64,000 nucleotides of DNA, taken from a phage. The translations under genes were made by a program, and so were the position numbers. A model generated the notes under the pieces. The model was not told the DNA's origin. It saw only the letters and a list, made by a program, of their open reading frames with translations, and searched no databases. This document shows, one piece after another, positions 13,219 to 40,144 of this stretch (position 1 is its first letter; the number at the start of each line of letters is the position of its first letter). The DNA lies in sequence record PZ445437.1; one strand, 5' to 3'.

Positions 13219-15032
13219 TGGTGTTTAACCCTATGCATGATTTCTTTATTTTTACCGAGATTAAATCCGCGTTCGTTCGGATTTCCCAAATAACCACATG
13301 TTCTTCTTATTGTGTTCATCTTTTTAGGATCAGTTTCTCCACAAATAGAACAAACAAATCCGTTTTCAGTAGGAGTCATTTCATGGGTACTTCCACATGT
13401 AAAACATTTATCTACTGGCATATTAACACCAAAATAATCTAAATGTTGTGCAGCATAATCCCATACGGCCTCAAGACCCTTTAAGTTATTTTTCATATCA
13501 GGAAGTTCAACATAAGAAATGTGACCACCTGTCGCAATGAAATGATATGGCGCTTCACGAGAAATCTTTTCAAACGGAGTAATATTTTCTTCTACTGAAA
13601 CGTGGAAACTGTTAGTGTACCAGCCTTTATCGGTAACATCTTTTACACTTCCATATTTTTCTGTATCAAGTTTACAGAAGCGATAACAAAGGTTTTCAGC
13701 AGGAGTAGAATACAAACTAAAAGCAAACCCAGTTCTTTCAGTCCACTGTTTAAGACGAGCATTCATTTTAGTTAAAATTTCTCGTCCAATATCACGACCT
13801 ACAAGAATATTCAATTCGTGAATACCAATGTATCCTAGAGACACTGAACTTCTGCCATTTTTAAATAACTCAATTATATCGTCATCAGGTTTAAGACGAA
13901 CCCCGAATGCACCTTCTTGGTAAAGAATAGGAGCAACAGTTGCTTTAACTCCTTTTAAGGAACTAATTCTACACATCAAAGCTTCAAAACACAAATCCAT
14001 TCGCTCATTGAACAATTCGATAAATTTCTGTTCATTGAACTGTGTTCCAATATAAGAATCTAATGCGATACGAGGAAGATTCAGTGTTACAACACCAAGA
14101 TTATTACGTCCATCAAGAATTTCATTACCAGTCGAATCTTTCCATACGCTCAAGAAACTACGGCAACCCATCGGAGAAACAGGAACAGATGAACCAGTGA
14201 TAGCTTTATTGTTCTTAGCTGAAATAATATCAGGATACATCCTTTTGCTTGCGCACTCTAGAGCAAGCTGTTTAATATCATAGTTCGGATCGTCTTTATA
14301 AAGATTAACACCTTCTTCAACAAACATAACAAGCTTAGGGAAAATAGGAGTTATCCCATCACGACCAAGACCTTTAATACGATTTTTCAGAATTGCTTTC
14401 TGAATCATTCGTTCAGTCCAGTCAGTTCCCGTACCAAATGTAATTGTTACAAAAGGCGTTTGTCCGTTTGAACTAAAGAGAGTATTTACTTCATATTCAT
14501 AAGCTTGGAATGCATCGTATACATCTTTTTCTGTTTTAGATTGAGCATAATTCAGTGCATCGGCGATTTGCCATTTTTCTGCATCCTCAATATGTTTTGC
14601 ATAGGTGCGTTTAACATAAGGAGAAAGTACTTTATCTACATTAGCAAAAGTCGTTCCGCCGTATTGATGGGAAGCAACCTGTGCAGTAATTTGTGCCATA
14701 ATTGCAGTAGCAACTCCAATTGATTTAGGAGTTTCAATCTGCGCATTACCAAGCTTAAATCCGTTCTCAAGCATTCCTTTTAAATCTACTAAACAGCAAT
14801 TAGTAAAAGGCAATGATATACTGTAATCTAAATCATGAAAATGAATTAATCCAACATTATGGGCATTTACAATATGACTTGGAAGAATACGACAAGCGAT
14901 ATGTTTAGAAACAATACCGGCCATTAAATCTCTTTTTGTTGGAAAGACGCGAGAATCTTTGTTGGCGTTTTCTGTATTTAATTCTTTATCTTTATTTGAA
15001 ATAAAATTTAAAACATCTTTTTCTAAAGACAT
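13215..15032 (-). CDS. nrdD: anaerobic ribonucleoside-triphosphate reductase (glycyl radical enzyme)
   Basis: 605 aa continuous ORF; C-terminal zinc ribbon (CFTCGS...CSICG) and glycyl radical motif RTCGYLG. Confidence 0.93.
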   Translation of the reverse strand: MSLEKDVLNFISNKDKELNTENANKDSRVFPTKRDLMAGIVSKHIACRILPSHIVNAHNVGLIHFHDLDYSISLPFTNCCLVDLKGMLENGFKLGNAQIETPKSIGVATAIMAQITAQVASHQYGGTTFANVDKVLSPYVKRTYAKHIEDAEKWQIADALNYAQSKTEKDVYDAFQAYEYEVNTLFSSNGQTPFVTITFGTGTDWTERMIQKAILKNRIKGLGRDGITPIFPKLVMFVEEGVNLYKDDPNYDIKQLALECASKRMYPDIISAKNNKAITGSSVPVSPMGCRSFLSVWKDSTGNEILDGRNNLGVVTLNLPRIALDSYIGTQFNEQKFIELFNERMDLCFEALMCRISSLKGVKATVAPILYQEGAFGVRLKPDDDIIELFKNGRSSVSLGYIGIHELNILVGRDIGREILTKMNARLKQWTERTGFAFSLYSTPAENLCYRFCKLDTEKYGSVKDVTDKGWYTNSFHVSVEENITPFEKISREAPYHFIATGGHISYVELPDMKNNLKGLEAVWDYAAQHLDYFGVNMPVDKCFTCGSTHEMTPTENGFVCSICGETDPKKMNTIRRTCGYLGNPNERGFNLGKNKEIMHRVKHQ

Positions 15033-15844
15033 AATTCTAATTTATCCTTTTGAAATTCTTCGTCTAAATATGGGTTCCAACCCATTTTAAACCTTTTGAT
15101 GAAATTATCAATTCTAAATTTCGGTAAGTTTAAATCCGCAAAAATAGATGATTTACTTTTAAAATCTGGACTTAAATAATCATATAAAATTTCTGCGTAT
15201 TTTAACCATAATATACAAGTACCAGATTTAATTGCTCTCGGAGTTTTCCAAGGTTTTACACCATACATCGGATTTCCGCTTCCTTTATGCCTGATAGAAG
15301 ATGAAATTCCAATTTTAATTTTAGCTTCCTTTGTATGCGAAAATCCACGATGTGGATTTTCTTTCCAGTATTTTTTAGAAGCTTCTGATATTTTCTTTCT
15401 GGCTAAATTAGTATGATGCTTTCCATAAAATCCATGATTTTTGCCTTTATTACGATTTCTTTTAATCATGGTTATTGATTGCTTTTCTCTAGTTTCTTTA
15501 GAAGGAGAAATACCATATGTCGTAAATTTGCCATCAGCATATGCTAAATTAAAATACTCTTTATTCCATACATCTTTTTCTATATTCTTTTGAAATTCAG
15601 CTTCAATGCTAGTTATTTGTTCATCTCCGACTAATTGAAAATATAATATTTCAACTTTCGGCGTTTCTTTCAATAAGGCTTTTTGAAATTCGGAAGATGA
15701 CGAAGACGAATAATAAAATTTACCATTTTTATCAATAATATTCGTTCCATCAAAAGTGCAATTGGTTTTACTTCCAATGTAATAATATGGTGGGGTTTTA
15801 GCATTAATTCTATTAATAAATGATAGTTTATATACTACATTCAT
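15023..15844 (-). CDS. free-standing GIY-YIG homing endonuclease-like protein (Seg-like)
   Basis: 273 aa; N-terminal VYKLSFINRINAKTPPYYYIGSKT (GIY-YIG-type) and NUMOD3-like motifs (GKNHGFYGKHHT, GNPMYGVKP); 3' end overlaps the nrdD start by 10 nt. Confidence 0.65.
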   Translation of the reverse strand: MNVVYKLSFINRINAKTPPYYYIGSKTNCTFDGTNIIDKNGKFYYSSSSSSEFQKALLKETPKVEILYFQLVGDEQITSIEAEFQKNIEKDVWNKEYFNLAYADGKFTTYGISPSKETREKQSITMIKRNRNKGKNHGFYGKHHTNLARKKISEASKKYWKENPHRGFSHTKEAKIKIGISSSIRHKGSGNPMYGVKPWKTPRAIKSGTCILWLKYAEILYDYLSPDFKSKSSIFADLNLPKFRIDNFIKRFKMGWNPYLDEEFQKDKLELCL

Positions 15845-16314
15845 TTTAAACTCTTTCTAAGCTGCTTCTTAAATGAAGCTATTAATTGTGTTTTAGTGTC
15901 AGATTCATTATATTCAAATCCTCTTTGAAGCATCTCAGCCATCATTTCCTCTTTTCCTAAACGAGAAAATTCCTTTGATTTATCTCCAACGAAGTTAGGG
16001 TGAATATTATTTTGGGTGTAATCGGATTTTAAATAAGTAAGTAAATTTTCTAACCATTCAAGATAATCAACTCCTTGTCCCTTTAAGCCAGAACGATTAA
16101 ATTTATGCTTCATTTGACCTTCTGCGGCATTGCAGAGATTACAAAGCAATCCACGTACCTTTCCTGCTTTTGGTCCATTTAATTCATGGTCATGGTCGAG
16201 GTGATTAGCTTGAACATCAGGATTTAGTTCTCGTTGGCAAATTAAGCATTTACCATTTTGTGCATCATAAAATTTCTGTTTTTCTTCTTTATATAATTTG
16301 CCAGTCAATAACAT
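15841..16314 (-). CDS. 49: endonuclease VII (Holliday junction resolvase) gp49
   Basis: 157 aa; MLLTGKLYKEEKQKFYDAQNGKCLICQREL... with CxxC...CxxC zinc site and HLDHDH motif, as recalled for T4 gp49. Confidence 0.9.
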   Translation of the reverse strand: MLLTGKLYKEEKQKFYDAQNGKCLICQRELNPDVQANHLDHDHELNGPKAGKVRGLLCNLCNAAEGQMKHKFNRSGLKGQGVDYLEWLENLLTYLKSDYTQNNIHPNFVGDKSKEFSRLGKEEMMAEMLQRGFEYNESDTKTQLIASFKKQLRKSLK

Positions 16315-28822: not shown

Positions 28823-29203
28823 TCAATTAGAAAATAAATTTATCCAAGATTGTTCTTTAATTAAAAATGGCTCAGAATCATATGCCATTAAACTTTGCGT
28901 AATTAATCCTTTAAAAGGTCCATCAATAAATTCCATGGTAAAATATGGAATTTTATTCATTAGCCGTGCATTAGGAGCAGTGCACAAAACTCTGCATCCT
29001 TTGAATACGCCTTTTTGTAATTTGTATTGCTTAGGATAAAATTCACTTAAAATGTTATTTTTTGCCAAAATTTCAAAATGATTCACCAATTTATTTTTAA
29101 TAGTTTTTGGTGAAAAATAAAGATACTCGAAAAGTTGCGCATCTGTCATCATTGCATTCCGATTACGAAAAACTGCGGACGAGTAATACCACCAATGCAA
29201 CAT
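28823..29203 (-). CDS. hypothetical protein
   Basis: 126 aa ORF; start probably internal. Confidence 0.35.
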
Positions 29204-29736
29204 TTACTATTACAGCAGTAGTGTACAGTGTCAATATGGACACTATAAATCTTATCCATATCAGGAGATTTGACAGGCTCATCAATTATATACAAAATTC
29301 GCGAAAGCGATAAACCTCTGAACTTGCTTCCTTTATTACCAATAAAACTGCGCACAGAATCAGTAAATAAACGAAAACGTATATCATCATTAGAATAACG
29401 CGAAAATTCCTTTTTAATGTTATTTGCAGAAATTTTAGCGTAAGCTGAAGTATTAGAAAGAACAATAACTGTTCCGCCATCATACAGCCAATTAGCAGCA
29501 AAGTTAGTCACAGCAATTGATTTACCAGATTGACGTCCACCGTCTAGTCGAAGTGTGCAGTACTGTTTAAGTAATTCTTCAAATGGCGGGATATATTCGT
29601 TTTTACAAATTTCTTCTACTCTAGCATCAGAATGGTGTGTAAAAGCATTCATCAGGGATAGATAAGGACCAGTTAAAAATGTTCTCATTTTCTTCTCTCT
29701 AAGTTTGGGCCATTCCATGGCGCATGAATTGTCCAT
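29149..29736 (-). CDS. P-loop NTPase-like protein
   Basis: 195 aa; Walker A-like GGRQSGKS and Walker B-like LYIIDEP. Confidence 0.45.
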   Translation of the reverse strand: MDNSCAMEWPKLREKKMRTFLTGPYLSLMNAFTHHSDARVEEICKNEYIPPFEELLKQYCTLRLDGGRQSGKSIAVTNFAANWLYDGGTVIVLSNTSAYAKISANNIKKEFSRYSNDDIRFRLFTDSVRSFIGNKGSKFRGLSLSRILYIIDEPVKSPDMDKIYSVHIDTVHYCCNSKCCIGGITRPQFFVIGMQ

Positions 29737-29829
29737 TTCTGTATTTACCCATTACCGCACTTGGGCTCGACCTTATTACAGGTTGGCGGGAATCCCTCAC
29801 AGAATCATGAGGTCCAGGTTGTTCCCATA

Positions 29830-30303
29830 TTATTTGAACGATTTAACGTACTGAATAGAACCTTTACTATTCACAAAGGCAATTTTACCATTTTTGTTAT
29901 ACATGGTAGCAGTACGTTGATAGCCATAAGTTTGTTTACCAGATTGATAACCAACTAATGCAAAATTATCTTCACCCATTTTATTCTGTTTAGCGCGAAT
30001 GCGTTCATGGCCATGTGCCATAAGAACCTTAGCATCACCTGTTGCAATGGATCGACGAGTTTTTTCATCTTCAACTGTATTAACAAAGTCGTCAAATGAA
30101 TCAAATTTAGCATGAGATTTATTATACAGTTTTCCATCTACTGCATAATTATATCCTTGTACATCCATCTCAACTTCTGTACCATCATCCAGTACAGCAG
30201 TGATTTTCTGTCCTTTTTTAAATTTCAAAAGATCAGTAAAAGATTCAGCAATAATTTGAGAATTAATAGTTGCTTCAGTAATAAATTCTTGATATGTTTT
30301 CAT
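29830..30303 (-). CDS. internal-protein-like protein with prohead-protease capsid-targeting sequence
   Basis: 157 aa; starts MKTYQEFITEA, the conserved capsid-targeting N-terminus of T-even internal proteins. Confidence 0.6.
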   Translation of the reverse strand: MKTYQEFITEATINSQIIAESFTDLLKFKKGQKITAVLDDGTEVEMDVQGYNYAVDGKLYNKSHAKFDSFDDFVNTVEDEKTRRSIATGDAKVLMAHGHERIRAKQNKMGEDNFALVGYQSGKQTYGYQRTATMYNKNGKIAFVNSKGSIQYVKSFK

Positions 30304-30363
30304 GTGTATCCTTTAAATGTAAATATTTTAATTAATAATTTGGCTCTTCAAGTAACTGTGAAT

Positions 30364-30393
30364 ATACTATCACAATTCTAGGAGAAAGTAAAC
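30364..30393 (-). promoter_or_regulatory. T4-type early promoter (-35 GTTTAC, -10 TGATAGTAT)
   Basis: Minus-strand GTTTAC at 30388-30393 and TAGTAT at 30364-30369. Confidence 0.5.
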
Positions 30394-30397
30394 AACT

Positions 30398-31366
<969 letters not shown>

Positions 31367-34597: not shown

Positions 34598-34739
34598 CGT
34601 TTTGTGAAAAAATTTTTAAAAAGTTTTGGGGAATTCTAGGGCAGGGAGGGGAAATCAAAGGATAGGATAATATATTATAAAGGGTAGAAACTAAATGATG
34701 TCTAGAGAGGCCTGGAAAGGCCTAGATACCAAAAAGCCC

Positions 34740-34763
34740 CAACCTTTCGGCTAGGGCTAAGAA
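34740..34763 (-). terminator. rho-independent terminator (hairpin AGCCCTAGCCGAAAGGTTGGGGCT followed by TTTTT on the minus strand)
   Basis: Inverted repeat with GAAA loop and U-tract immediately 3' of the 34766 ORF. Confidence 0.6.
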
Positions 34764-34765
34764 TG

Positions 34766-35239
34766 TTATTTGATTTGTTTAGCAGACCAAATGCGGTCTT
34801 TAATAATTTTTTGGATGTCTTCAACATACTCAAGAGAGTGAGCATGTGGGTTATCTTTGAAACTATAAGCACGAGCTAGCTTTTGGCCTTCAGTTTTGAT
34901 TACTAAAAGCTCTTTAAGGATAGCTTCATATTTGGAGATAATTCCTTTAACGATATTTTTCTCTTGCGTGACTTTAGGATCTGCTTTAGGAGCAGGTTTA
35001 CCTGAAGCCTTTGCAAAAGCAGCTCCAGTAGCAACTAAACTTTTCCAAGCCATACTAACTGCATTCCCTGTAAATCCTTCGGCTTTCATATCACGAGCAA
35101 ATTGGAATCGTGATTCATCGGAAGCATCTTTATAGGAATATTTACCCGCGGCAATGGCTGCTTTTGCGACAGCTTGAATTTCGGTGCTAGATGCTTCATT
35201 TAACACCGCTTCATTTAAAAATTGAGCATATGATTTCAT
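34766..35239 (-). CDS. internal-protein-like protein with divergent capsid-targeting sequence
   Basis: 157 aa; N-terminus MKSYAQFLNEA resembles the MKTYQEFIAEA motif; Ala/Lys-rich. Confidence 0.5.
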   Translation of the reverse strand: MKSYAQFLNEAVLNEASSTEIQAVAKAAIAAGKYSYKDASDESRFQFARDMKAEGFTGNAVSMAWKSLVATGAAFAKASGKPAPKADPKVTQEKNIVKGIISKYEAILKELLVIKTEGQKLARAYSFKDNPHAHSLEYVEDIQKIIKDRIWSAKQIK

Positions 35240-35288
35240 CTTATTTCCTGTTTTAATTTGTGGTTTTAATATACTTATTTATACTAAA

Positions 35289-35312
35289 AAGCCCCAACCT
35301 TTCGGCTGGGGC
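35289..35312 (-). terminator. rho-independent terminator (near-identical copy of the 34740 hairpin)
   Basis: AGCCCCAGCCGAAAGGTTGGGGCT followed by TTTTT on the minus strand. Confidence 0.6.
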
Positions 35313-35620
35313 TAAGCCTTGCGGCAACCTTGTCGGGGTTCCACCTGCTAAGGCAAGTGTTTGTACGAAACGCCGGGATTCGAACCCGGTTATCAAGCAG
35401 TTGACGCTACTCAATATTTTTAAAAGGCCATATCTCGACCATATCCGAACGTTCCGTCAAAAACGCTACTCGGCTTACGGCAAAGATATTTCCTCGAATC
35501 GATAATTCGGTGCGCCGTTTCTGCTGTGATATAAGGGGACATTAACAAAACATAAAGATTTATTAATGCCAGTCCTTAAACAGGGAACATCAGTCCGACG
35601 ACTTACCGGTAGCGACCCGG
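35313..35620 (-). ncRNA. candidate small stable RNA(s) with a tRNA-like T-arm
   Basis: Non-coding 300-nt stretch between a minus-strand ORF and a terminator; contains CCGGGTTCGAATCCCGG on the minus strand; no complete cloverleaf found. Confidence 0.35.
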
Positions 35621-36691: not shown

Positions 36692-37300
36692 TTATATATT
36701 GTTAATTTGATTTAGAATTCTTTTTGCTTGAGTATGACTTACGCCAATATGCTTAGCATATTTAGATAATTCACCACGCTTAGAAAAATCATATAATTTA
36801 GAAATTTCTATTCTTCTTTTTCTTTCATCCACAGAAACTTTTGCTTCGTTTGCTTTTGCTATTTTACGTTTAGCTTCTTGAGAATGAGTTTTACCAGCAA
36901 AGCCATTCTTCATTAATCCATTTGAAGACCATCCTTTTAATTTTCCGTTAGAATGTGCCTTTTTAACACCCAATGAAATTAATTCGCGTTGCTGGTCTGT
37001 CATAGGATAATTATTTATATGATCCCATCCACCTTCACCGCCAAGTTTTAAATTATACACATCTGGTCTATTTAAAAACTCTTCTGTAACAATATTTTTC
37101 TCGGCTTCAAGCATAGATTCTTTATCATCAAAATACTCTAATATTTCTTTAGAAAAATTTTCTATACCATACTTATCTTGGGCTCTTTTTAATAATTTAC
37201 CAGAACCCATATATCCATCATCTAAATTTTCGGTAGAATGCACACCAATATAAATTTTATTATTAATTTTATTTGTTATTTTATAAAGATAAAAATGCAT
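36692..37300 (-). CDS. segB: GIY-YIG homing endonuclease SegB-like, inside the tRNA cluster
   Basis: ORF 36692..37342; MHFYLYKITNKINNKIYIGVH GIY-YIG-type motif plus NUMOD-like C-terminus; start at the internal Met is preferred because the longer ORF abuts tRNA-Gly. Confidence 0.65.
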   Translation of the reverse strand: MHFYLYKITNKINNKIYIGVHSTENLDDGYMGSGKLLKRAQDKYGIENFSKEILEYFDDKESMLEAEKNIVTEEFLNRPDVYNLKLGGEGGWDHINNYPMTDQQRELISLGVKKAHSNGKLKGWSSNGLMKNGFAGKTHSQEAKRKIAKANEAKVSVDERKRRIEISKLYDFSKRGELSKYAKHIGVSHTQAKRILNQINNI

Positions 37301-37346
37301 ATCAGTCCCTAATAAAGAACTGAGCGTCTCACGACGAGTCATAAAT

Positions 37347-39077: not shown

Positions 39078-39105
39078 TTTATTCTCCTCAGTAGTAGATA
39101 GGGTA

Positions 39106-39135
39106 ATAGTATCACTACCCTATCTAAAAGTAAAC
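39106..39135 (-). promoter_or_regulatory. T4-type early promoter (-35 GTTTAC, -10 TGATACTAT)
   Basis: Minus-strand GTTTAC at 39130-39135 and TACTAT at 39106-39111; part of a repeated cassette (see 39406). Confidence 0.55.
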
Positions 39136-39369
39136 TTATTTTTTACGAAAAATTGATTTATATTTATCAGCCCATTTCTCGATGACTTTTGCCGGGCCAT
39201 AGATAACAAAATAATCACCAAACTCTTCACCACCGAGTTGACCGAAATTATCTAATGCATCACGAAGAACTCCATGAGGCATTTCGCCCATTTTATCTTT
39301 CTTACCAATGTAAATAAACTCAACTTTTACATCAGCAGCTTCAGCAATAAATTCTTGATACGTTTTCAT
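39136..39369 (-). CDS. internal protein (IPI-like) with capsid-targeting sequence
   Basis: Starts MKTYQEFIAEA at the RBS-preceded internal Met of ORF 39136..39387; 77 aa. Confidence 0.6.
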   Translation of the reverse strand: MKTYQEFIAEAADVKVEFIYIGKKDKMGEMPHGVLRDALDNFGQLGGEEFGDYFVIYGPAKVIEKWADKYKSIFRKK

Positions 39370-39405
39370 TTTATTCTCCAATTTCACATTTGTTTTGATA
39401 GGGTA

Positions 39406-39435
39406 ATAGTATCACAACTAAAACCCTATGTAAAC
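39406..39435 (-). promoter_or_regulatory. T4-type early promoter (-35 GTTTAC, -10 TGATACTAT)
   Basis: Minus-strand GTTTAC at 39430-39435 and TACTAT at 39406-39411; shares GATAGGGTAATAGTATCAC with the promoter at 39106. Confidence 0.55.
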
Positions 39436-39447
39436 AACTTTGTGAAA

Positions 39448-40144
<697 letters not shown>

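Follow-up and report, generated by a model that had tools for sequence, protein, structure and literature searches.

The DNA analyzed here, referred to as the window, is a 64,000-nucleotide stretch of a phage sequence (record PZ445437.1). Between the T4-type soluble lysozyme gene e and vs.8, it carries a single internal-protein gene, ip4, so the order of the locus is e-ip4-vs.8. Two further genes, ip6 and a gene that we call p157, encode products with a similar N-terminal leader and lie elsewhere in the window. The coordinates of all features are provided in Table 1. These minus-strand reading frames had been reported from inspection of the sequence alone and are present as claimed, including the Ip4 leader MKTYQEFITEA and the P-loop of the 195-aa protein, in which both the Walker A and the Walker B motif were found.

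Table 1. Features of the ip loci and of the p157 cassette in the 64-kb window
Feature	Coordinates	Strand	Basis
vs.8 orthologue, P-loop NTPase, 195 aa	29149..29736	-	T4 Vs.8 identity, PHROG 1488, Walker motifs
Out-of-frame vs.8 remnant, GTG-initiated upstream ORF ending in TAG	29678..29800	-	T4 Vs.8 N-terminal 41 residues
ip4, internal protein 4, 157 aa	29830..30303	-	Pfam DUF7412, PHROG 3155, T2 Ip4 identity
Segment unique with respect to T4, 441 bp, mature Ip4 coding part	29831..30271	-	Pairwise blastn breakpoints, stop-codon alignment
Conserved ip-gene upstream cassette	30304..30397	-	Alignment with T4 e-ipIII, T4 ipIII-ipII, and ECO4
Gene e, T4-type soluble lysozyme (anchor)	30398..30892	-	97% identity to T4 e; Pfam Phage_lysozyme
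520-bp cassette, missing from T4 and T2	34761..35280	-	blastn against T4 and T2
p157, candidate internal protein, 157 aa	34766..35239	-	CTS-like leader; PHROG 2280
Perfect T4 late-promoter box TATAAATA	35276..35283	-	Read directly from the sequence
Terminator hairpin, upstream copy, ending the tRNA/rnaD/rnaC transcription unit	35290..35313	-	Terminator scan
ip6, internal protein 6, 77 aa	39136..39369	-	PHROG 8111, annotation in relatives, leader

Homology to T4 covers e, the spacer between e and ip4, and the initial 32 nt of the ip gene, ending at position 30272, and returns precisely at the ip4 stop codon, from position 29830 downward. Between these two points, the window contains the 441 bp that encode mature Ip4, whereas T4 contains approximately 1.44 kb comprising mature ipIII, ipII, and denV. 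The two phages differ by a clean swap of cassettes: one breakpoint coincides with the end of the 10-codon leader and the other with the stop codon. They share the flanking genes e and vs.8, the promoter/RBS/leader cassette, and codons 1 to 10 of the first ip gene, but T4 has three genes where the window has one, its mature internal proteins are unrelated in sequence to those of the window, and it encodes DenV. The upstream cassette consists of a sigma-70/T4-early-like promoter motif (GTTTAC...TAGTAT), an RBS, and a 5'UTR, and it is common to T4 ipIII and ipII and to ip6; copies of the corresponding repeat family are found at 30364-30399, 39106-39141, and 39406-39441. The conserved promoter, RBS, and 10-codon leader ahead of every ip gene bound the swap on one side and the stop codon ahead of vs.8 on the other, an arrangement consistent with the repeated cassettes having undergone homologous recombination. 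We infer this mechanism from the positions of the breakpoints.

The original prediction had placed a P-loop protein together with ip4 where T4 has denV, ipII, and ipIII. The substitution of the T4 trio by ip4 is borne out, but the P-loop protein is no part of the difference, since T4 itself encodes Vs.8 immediately beside denV. The 195-aa protein is 93% identical to residues 26 to 219 of T4 Vs.8, matches PHROG 1488 (E 5e-79), and contains the Walker A sequence GGRQSGKS (residues 66 to 73) and the Walker B sequence LYIIDE (residues 148 to 153). Its gene is syntenic with that of T4 (vs.6-vs.7-vs.8, upstream of vs.7) and is annotated as vs.8 in RB14, AR1, and T2; a sequence search against the PDB gave no meaningful match. 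The annotated versions in relatives have 179 to 189 aa, and the true start of vs.8 is likely the internal ATG at 29688 (MRTFLTGPY...). Residues 1 to 41 of T4 Vs.8 match the upstream remnant at 80%, in a frame different from that of the P-loop domain. An 8-bp duplication in T4 (CTTATAGA) fuses the two frames, and the alignment shows that this duplication is missing from the window, RB14, and T2.

The window shares gene order and 97 to 99% DNA identity over 2.5 kb with 303Ecol101PP, RB14, RB27, AR1, and T2, and the locus is annotated in these relatives as vs.6, vs.7, vs.8, Ip4, and e. The ip4 loci of T2, RB14, RB27, AR1, RB18, and 303Ecol101PP match it in order and junctions, encode an Ip4 that is 99% identical, and have no denV. 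No substantive differences were noted, vs.8 being intact in the window and fragmented in T2. The e-ip4-vs.8 arrangement is found in T2, RB14, RB27, AR1, and roughly 100 sequenced Tequatrovirus records, and the complete T4-type trio (ipIII, ipII, and denV) in only 31 records. Taken together, these data make it very likely that the locus is the T2/RB14-type allele, in which mature ip4 stands in place of the T4 trio; Ip4 would be an injected protein, and the phage probably lacks denV. The arrangement is therefore a known polymorphism, already described from T2, and does not represent new biology.

A third haplotype bears on how the denV-less arrangement arose. In RB51, wV7, ECO4, and MLF4, the order is e-denV-ip4-vs.8, with ip4 and vs.8 as in the window (95 to 98% identity) and with a denV allele, 78% identical to T4 DenV, that the window does not have. 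The denV-bearing and denV-less haplotypes are both common and about equal in frequency. An e-denV-vs.8 haplotype also exists. It is accordingly possible, at somewhat less than even odds, that the arrangement of the window was generated by a simple deletion of denV from a locus of the RB51/ECO4 type and not by a cassette exchange with a T4-like locus. In ECO4, denV falls precisely in the gap that separates the ip promoter from the ip4 RBS, and its last five codons and stop (AAAAATATTTACATTTAA) correspond to sequence that the window retains ahead of ip4. However, this 17-nt 5'UTR sequence also lies upstream of T4 ipII, with no denV before it, and is thus not necessarily left over from denV; the window retains no denV-internal fragment, and the opposite event, an insertion of denV into a locus lacking it, accounts for the data equally well.

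Several observations place Ip4 in the internal-protein family. (i) It matches Pfam DUF7412 with 318.7 bits (cut-off of 27) and PHROG 3155, whose name, internal virion protein, is a homology label (E 1e-101). (ii) It is 99.4% identical to T2 Ip4, and Ip4 is annotated in T2, RB14, and AR1. (iii) Codons 1 to 10 (30274-30303) form the capsid-targeting leader; cleavage by gp21 is predicted after Glu10 (between the E and A of I-T-E-A), and residues M1, K2, F7, and E10 are invariant across 13 family members. A further invariant motif, I-A-E, ends at residue 20, so that a second cleavage in front of Ser21 is possible. (iv) The mature protein is basic, with a pI of 9.1. By analogy to T4 IPIII, the leader would use Tyr4 and Phe7 to send Ip4 to the prohead scaffolding core and would be removed after Glu10 of the I-x-E motif by the prohead protease gp21, and the basic mature protein would then leave the head with the DNA. 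More weakly, T4 Ip1 to Ip3, which act on GmrSD variants, and the Ip6 relative Bas37_0260, which acts on McrBC, suggest that Ip4 may block a single kind of modification-dependent (type IV) restriction enzyme inside the cell. A comparison with the known internal proteins had been suggested. Ip4 gave a tblastn match to IPII (E 1e-4) that was lost when the leaders were removed (E 4.4), so the similarity is driven by the leader only, and mature Ip4 had no detectable similarity to IPI, IPII, IPIII, Ip6, or p157. Its sequence resembles that of no solved structure in the PDB, and an AlphaFold2 model built from a 13-sequence alignment (mean pLDDT of 56) was too poor for a fold search. Any anti-restriction target of Ip4 is thus proposed purely by analogy. 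A literature search for the function of Ip4 and for virion proteomics of Ip4, Ip6, and p157 returned nothing; the primary source for Ip4 to Ip10 is Repoila et al. 1994, as cited in PMC12373910, PMC3012670, and PMC9026906.

The window contains 610 Met-initiated reading frames with a length of 40 aa or more. Exactly three of them, Ip4, Ip6, and p157, have an N terminus resembling a capsid-targeting sequence (CTS). The CTS determinants have been mapped to residues 4 and 7 for targeting and residues 8 and 10 for processing (PMC9026906), and all three proteins have aromatic residues at positions 4 and 7, Ile or Leu at position 8, and Glu at position 10. Ip4 and Ip6 are also encoded behind a promoter-RBS-leader cassette at e/vs.8 or 57B/trna.4 and match the profile of a named Ip family, whereas p157 shows neither property. 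A search of NCBIfam yielded no match above cut-off.

Gene ip6 lies between 57B and trna.4, which is the classical ipI locus, and is flanked by 39-nt promoter repeats (39097-39135 and 39397-39435). T4 IPI had no match in the 64-kb window, and a T4-type ipI is thus missing. The Ip6 leader, MKTYQEFIAE followed by Ala, is identical to that of T4 IPII and IPIII. The protein matches PHROG 8111 (E 6e-51), for which the name internal virion protein is likewise a homology label, and the gene is annotated as ip6 or ipVI in VR20, VR25, fHoEco02, and PST; a sequence search against the PDB gave no meaningful match. Over its full length of 77 residues, Ip6 shares 82% identity with Bas37_0260 of phage KarlGJung, which shares the leader and the position beside trna.4. 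Bas37_0260 inhibits McrBC, and its knockout renders the phage McrBC sensitive (preprint 10.1101/2025.11.20.689424). The 14 substitutions between the two proteins are concentrated in the C-terminal third, and inhibition of McrBC by Ip6 is putative. Bas37 also has a second ip gene at the trna.4 locus (bas37_0261), which the window does not.

The third leader-bearing gene is located outside both polymorphic ip loci, between rnaC and e.8, in a 520-bp cassette composed of a late promoter, the p157 gene, and a second terminator copy. Both flanks of the cassette match one 35-bp terminator in T4, as determined by blastn against T4 and T2, and the upstream flank is homologous to the T4 region annotated rnaC/rnaD. 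The flanking repeats (34726-34761 and 35281-35316) are 94% identical; the downstream terminator copy is at 34735-34758, and the hairpins have 10-bp stems followed by a T run. The late-promoter box precedes the start codon of p157 by 36 nt and is one of 13 such octamers on both strands of the window. Among five p157 homologues examined, the box is intact in three (AR1 and two Jiaodavirus phages) and one base off in phage a48 (TATAAATT) and in the Dhakavirus copy (AATAAATA).

The leader of p157, MKSYAQFLNE followed by Ala, is encoded by DNA that is 75% identical to the ip4 leader, and the mature protein has a pI of 9.5. The only profile matched is PHROG 2280, of unknown function. The mature part has no sequence similarity to other internal proteins, and a sequence search against the PDB gave no meaningful match. 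Its AlphaFold2 model is all-helical (pLDDT of 71); Foldseek searches with it retrieved nothing from the PDB at an E value of 0.001 or below and only the orthologues of p157 itself from BFVD. The gene occurs in 511 phage records, which correspond to about 500 sequenced T-even-like phages belonging to three genera or more. Of the 40 p157 matches listed, 38 carry the label hypothetical protein or unnamed protein product; the remaining two lack a feature or any annotation.

We tentatively propose that p157 is an unrecognized capsid-targeted, injected protein that is encoded in a self-contained late-promoter/terminator cassette and that its site, after the stable-RNA operon, is a third ip locus. 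Equally tentative is the reading that p157 is an ordinary late accessory protein whose resemblance to a CTS is fortuitous or vestigial. The latter is favored by its position outside the two classical loci, without their promoter cassette, by a leader in which 4 of the 10 residues differ from the canonical sequence, by the hypothetical labels in all annotated records sampled, and by published HIDEN-SEQ transposon data, in which the p157 orthologue bas37_0244 was neutral for fitness on K-12 and on two clinical isolates. Against it, p157 retains the critical residues Tyr4, Phe7, Leu/Ile8, and Glu10, followed by Ala, and the leader is conserved as MK[ST]Y..FL..E or MKFKEFLAEA in its Tequatrovirus, Dhakavirus, and Jiaodavirus homologues. 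Its variation parallels that of known CTSs, as MKFKEFLAEA and the MKTFKEF leader of T4 IPI illustrate; the motif is rare among the candidate N termini of the window, and the upstream late-promoter box suits expression during head building. In addition, one homologue from a Klebsiella phage is labeled Internal head protein.

T4 IPI*, Ip2, and Ip3 resemble the proteins of the window in their N-terminal leader with an L/I-x-E motif, in their small, basic mature parts, and in the use of the same two polymorphic loci, but their mature parts have no sequence similarity to those of the window. The T4 head contains about 360 copies of each internal protein, a number that argues for a structural role, and the leader-bearing proteins of the window are all basic, with a mature pI of 8.2 to 9.5, like T4 IPII and IPIII. 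Furthermore, IPIII mutants assemble heads more slowly and have a burst of about 40% of normal (PMC9026906), and the missing fitness effect of bas37_0244 points in the same direction. It might therefore be argued that Ip4 and the other leader-bearing proteins serve mainly as basic DNA counterions or scaffold-associated head proteins and that their variation is largely neutral. We consider this unlikely. All internal proteins with a known phenotype (Ip1, Ip2, Ip3, and Bas37_0260) are specific inhibitors of type IV restriction, with T4 Ip1, Ip2, and Ip3 each blocking a distinct GmrSD enzyme (PMC12373910); ipIII is required on ECOR17, and leaderless IPIII in the cytoplasm still rescues infection (PMC9391042). 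Moreover, the presence of unrelated mature domains behind one conserved leader is more readily reconciled with diversifying selection than with a shared structural function.

The claim that the window contains no DenV-like reading frame withstood all searches. The best tblastn match of T4 DenV in the 64-kb window had an E value of 3.8, and none of seven diverse DenV queries (T4 and six others) gave a value below 0.09. A DenV HMM was run with all filters off, and ECO4 served as a positive control (227 bits). The sole candidate, at 15841-16314 (16 bits, E 5e-4), was rejected: the reading frame encodes gp49 endonuclease VII, and the alignment is confined to a 57-residue C-terminal helical stretch, without the catalytic N terminus, in which Thr2 and Glu23 of DenV lie. 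The phage, of which 64 kb were seen, probably lacks any pyrimidine-dimer glycosylase, like T2, and host and recombinational repair would serve it after UV irradiation. T2 is more UV sensitive than T4, and the loss of denV in the window agrees with this. Classical genetics (Streisinger in 1956 and Harm in 1963) reportedly established the UV sensitivity of T2 and its lack of the v gene; our literature search on these two points found no documenting paper. Although only about 38% of the approximately 167-kb genome is visible and denV homologues, present in 1,119 phage records, occupy differing positions within the locus among T-even phages, we regard a divergent or relocated denV outside the window, and hence a phage proficient in UV repair, as very improbable, because denV, where present, always lies between e and vs.8 in the T-even genomes inspected, T2 and 303Ecol101PP, whose genomes are complete and have the same e-ip4-vs.8 junction, gave no DenV match anywhere, and 1,125 places in the 1,119 records amount to essentially one copy per genome.

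The variable set of internal proteins had been put forward as a candidate host-range determinant. The published work on Ip1 to Ip3, ipIII, and Bas37_0260 supports this idea in general; the arrangement itself, being the standard T2/RB14-type haplotype, is not peculiar to this phage. The only modestly new item at these loci is the p157 cassette. The leads that remain are Ip4, which is very common, and the 157-aa late cassette, apparently an overlooked member of the injected-protein class; if p157 is indeed injected, it would, together with Ip4, widen the set of injected type IV restriction inhibitors beyond two Ip loci. In T-even phages, injected anti-restriction proteins are swapped at hotspots, the ip loci, and the set of ip genes helps decide which wild E. 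coli strains a phage infects, which matters for the choice of phages for therapy.

The window is a segment of a mosaic Tequatrovirus (T4-like) genome: separate parts of it are 96 to 99% identical to separate Tequatrovirus records, and no identical phage was found among the deposited records. The minus-strand gene run comprises gene 46/47, nrdD to tk, vs, regB, e, the tRNA cluster, the ipI locus, and gene 1, with the strand switch at the baseplate genes. There are 10 tRNA genes (including His, Asn, Tyr, and Met), compared with eight in T4, and the two sets differ. A putative homing endonuclease ORF carrying a NUMOD3 motif lies between nrdD and gene 49, with an overlap at each end, whereas nrdD directly adjoins gene 49 in T2 and 303Ecol101PP. 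In the tRNA cluster, a GIY-YIG homing endonuclease matches T4 SegB only over the N-terminal 117 residues (83%) and then diverges; its counterpart in AR1 is annotated segD, and it may be a chimeric seg gene.

Coordinates of the features discussed, all on the minus strand of the window
Feature	Position	Product	Start	Family match
NUMOD3 ORF	15023-15844	273 aa
vs.8	29149-29736	195 aa
ORF upstream of vs.8	29678-29800	33 codons
ip4	29830-30303	157 aa	MKTYQEFITEA	DUF7412; PHROG 3155
p157	34766-35239	157 aa	MKSYAQFLNEA	PHROG 2280, 'unknown function'
GIY-YIG gene	36692-37342
ip6	39136-39369	77 aa	MKTYQEFIAEA	PHROG 8111
57B	39448-39906	59 + 68 aa

At the ip locus beside the lysozyme gene e, T4 homology (89%) begins at the end of e, crosses the intergenic region, and stops at 30272, 32 nt into the ip gene; it returns (95%) exactly at the ip4 stop codon, from 29830 downward, identity in the alignment beginning right after the TAA. 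Thus, about 1.44 kb of T4 is swapped for 441 bp coding for the mature part of a different protein, Ip4. The T4 segment concerned comprises the mature part of ipIII, then ipII, which has a separate copy of the promoter/leader cassette, and denV. The ip4 ORF and its leader are present as originally predicted. Ip4 matches its Pfam family with 318.7 bits and a PHROG described as 'internal virion protein', it is 99.4% identical to T2 Ip4, and the same gene is annotated Ip4 in T2, RB14, and AR1; its structure model (pLDDT 56) was uninformative. Ten residues past the canonical cleavage site, Ip4 has a second invariant I/L/M-x-E motif (I-A-E20|S, residues 18 to 21); judged from this motif, the mature N terminus could be residue 21 rather than 11 (compare the 19-residue leader of T4 IPI).

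The adjacent ORF, with Walker A (GGRQSGKS) and Walker B (LYIIDE) motifs, was also found, but its interpretation as a P-loop protein replacing denV, ipII, and ipIII was wrong, since T4 itself has this gene, vs.8, directly adjoining denV. The protein is the orthologue of the P-loop NTPase family protein Vs.8 (93% identity to T4 residues 26 to 219; synteny with vs.6 and vs.7). The N termini differ because T4 has an 8-bp tandem duplication (CTTATAGA; T4 locus L001:3780-3913) by which the P-loop domain is joined to a short frame upstream. This duplication is missing from the window, RB14, and T2, which have a separate upstream ORF instead of the N-terminal extension of the 219-aa T4 Vs.8; T2 vs.8 is fragmented further. 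The vs.8 5' end, beside the swap junction, is unstable.

The predicted absence of denV from the window was borne out by sequence and profile searches, which gave no accepted match. The best E value in the window was 3.8 for T4 DenV, and none was below 0.09 for seven DenVs spanning 35 to 100% identity. An HMM built from these seven sequences was searched, with all filters off, against every stop-to-stop frame of the window; the positive control, ECO4, scored 227 bits. The sole window match (16 bits), to a helical stretch of the gp49 endonuclease VII, was rejected as DenV. DenV had no match anywhere in the complete genomes of T2 and 303Ecol101PP, the latter being 99% identical to the window at the ip4 locus, with the same junctions. 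In every denV-bearing T-even genome inspected, the gene is located between e and vs.8; with 1125 places in 1119 records, it is essentially single-copy. Given this fixed position and its absence from the window, T2, and 303Ecol101PP, the phage very probably lacks denV, like T2. In classical genetics, the UV sensitivity of T2 is about twice that of T4, owing to the lack of v-gene function in T2.

In a ranked spread sample (770 matching records, 21 full-coverage rows), several alleles were seen between e and vs.8: (i) e-ip4-vs.8 in about 8 of these rows (the window, T2, RB27, SG1, and others), (ii) e-denV-ip4-vs.8 in about 10 (RB51, wV7, MLF4, ECO4, and others), and (iii) e-denV-vs.8 without an ip gene (DalCa and VEc20; it also occurs in Bas37). 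Several further alleles include the T4 trio, of which 80% or more of the length is covered in just 31 records. The ECO4 denV allele, 78% identical to T4 DenV, fits exactly into the gap separating the ip promoter from the ip4 RBS, and the 17-18 nt that make up its last five codons and stop (AAAAATATTTACATTTAA) also occur ahead of window ip4 and of T4 ipII. The denV 3' end doubles as ip-gene 5'UTR sequence (ECO4 L010 3001-3440 versus window 30304-30345), so that denV and the ip cassette physically overlap. Deletion of denV from the e-denV-ip4-vs.8 type could have given the window allele; the reverse event, insertion of denV into a denV-less allele, could also have occurred.

Of the 610 Met-initiated window frames with 40 aa or more, exactly 3 start with a sequence resembling the capsid-targeting leader (CTS); besides ip4, these are the two further predicted genes, ip6 and p157. 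The former, which several phage annotations name ip6 or ipVI and which shares 80% identity with a T6 gene, lies between 57B and trna.4 at the classical ipI locus, with 39-nt copies of the ip promoter cassette on either side; T4-type IPI is absent from the window. Over its full length, Ip6 shares 82% identity with Bas37_0260 of phage KarlGJung, which is needed to overcome McrBC in E. coli K-12 and bears the packaging signal (2025 preprint, 10.1101/2025.11.20.689424). The Bas37 ipI locus carries a second ip gene, Bas37_0261 (L026:1064-1321; leader MKTFKEFATKTTITE, followed by S), with no homologue in the window; its significant depletion in one clinical-isolate comparison (log2FC -2.09, adjusted p 0; HIDEN-SEQ supplementary file 8) hints at another Ip with a host-specific role. 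Gene 57B, a LigT-like 'RNA ligase' 98.7% identical to T4 57B, is split into two ORFs by an in-frame stop (39724-39726) where T4 has Gly61, and is either a pseudogene or a sequencing error.

The candidate internal protein p157 was found in 511 phage records. Of 40 listed rows, 38 bear the label 'hypothetical protein' or 'unnamed protein product', and 2 have no feature or no annotation; one Klebsiella-phage homologue in a large protein collection is labelled 'Internal head protein'. The 520-bp cassette, absent in T4 and T2, is inserted past the terminator of the tRNA/rnaD/rnaC unit, with a terminator copy on both sides. A perfect T4 late-promoter box (TATAAATA), one of 13 such octamers in the window, lies 36 nt upstream of the start; the box is intact in 3 of 5 homologues examined and one base off in the others. 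Terminator and CTS-like leader (MK[ST]Y..FL..E, or MKFKEFLAEA in Klebsiella phages) are kept in Tequatrovirus, Dhakavirus, and Jiaodavirus homologues. In the model (pLDDT 71), a small N-terminal domain of four helices is followed by a linker rich in Pro and Lys and by a helical hairpin; a fold search with this model gave no informative match. The orthologue bas37_0244 is non-essential and neutral in those host comparisons that were examined. A frameshift immediately following the conserved 'AQEK', at a short A-run (GAGAAAAATATC) corresponding to window ~34940-34960 (p157-family alignment A4), shortens several homologues (e.g., Shigella phage SfPhi01, 111 aa); such repeated loss of the C terminus may reflect mutational noise or phase variation. 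The protein p157 is plausibly an injected protein encoded at a third locus; that it is a new capsid-targeted anti-defence protein is possible but somewhat doubtful.

Ip4, Ip6, and p157 all keep the residues mapped by experiment in IPIII, where positions 4 and 7 are necessary for capsid targeting and 8 and 10 for processing by the prohead protease gp21 (PMC9026906). The mature proteins are basic (pI 8.2-9.5), like the T4 IPs, and are unrelated when compared with one another and with IPI-III. Outside the window, the 54-aa gp61.1 (T2 L006:17862-18026; 303Ecol101PP L023:11065-11229) starts with a CTS-like MKTYKEFIKED, with Asp at position 11, and may, on this sequence, be another unrecognised capsid-targeted T-even protein. 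By analogy, each of the three window proteins would inhibit one type IV restriction enzyme: among T4 Ip1, Ip2, and Ip3, each blocks a single GmrSD variant, with no cross-protection, and T2 and T6, without Ip2 and Ip3, are restricted (PMC12373910); in ECOR17, loss of ipIII abolishes growth (PMC9391042). The analogy is close for Ip6, given its 82% identity to the McrBC inhibitor, and no target can be proposed for Ip4 and p157.

Taken together, the ORFs, the leaders, and the denV-less window of the original prediction stood, and the replacement of the T4 trio by a P-loop protein did not. Its anti-restriction and host-range reading of injected proteins is reasonable, with growing experimental support (Ip1-3, ipIII, and Bas37_0260), but not new. 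Later papers (PMC12373910, PMC3012670, and PMC9026906) credit Repoila et al. (1994) with two polymorphic ip loci, a conserved leader, and at least 10 Ip ORFs. Since this polymorphism is established and many deposited genomes already carry the e-ip4-vs.8 allele with its annotation, the ip-locus finding is already known. Only p157 may so far be under-appreciated, as a plausibly injected protein from a third locus, in contrast to 'the two Ip loci' of recent literature (PMC12373910).
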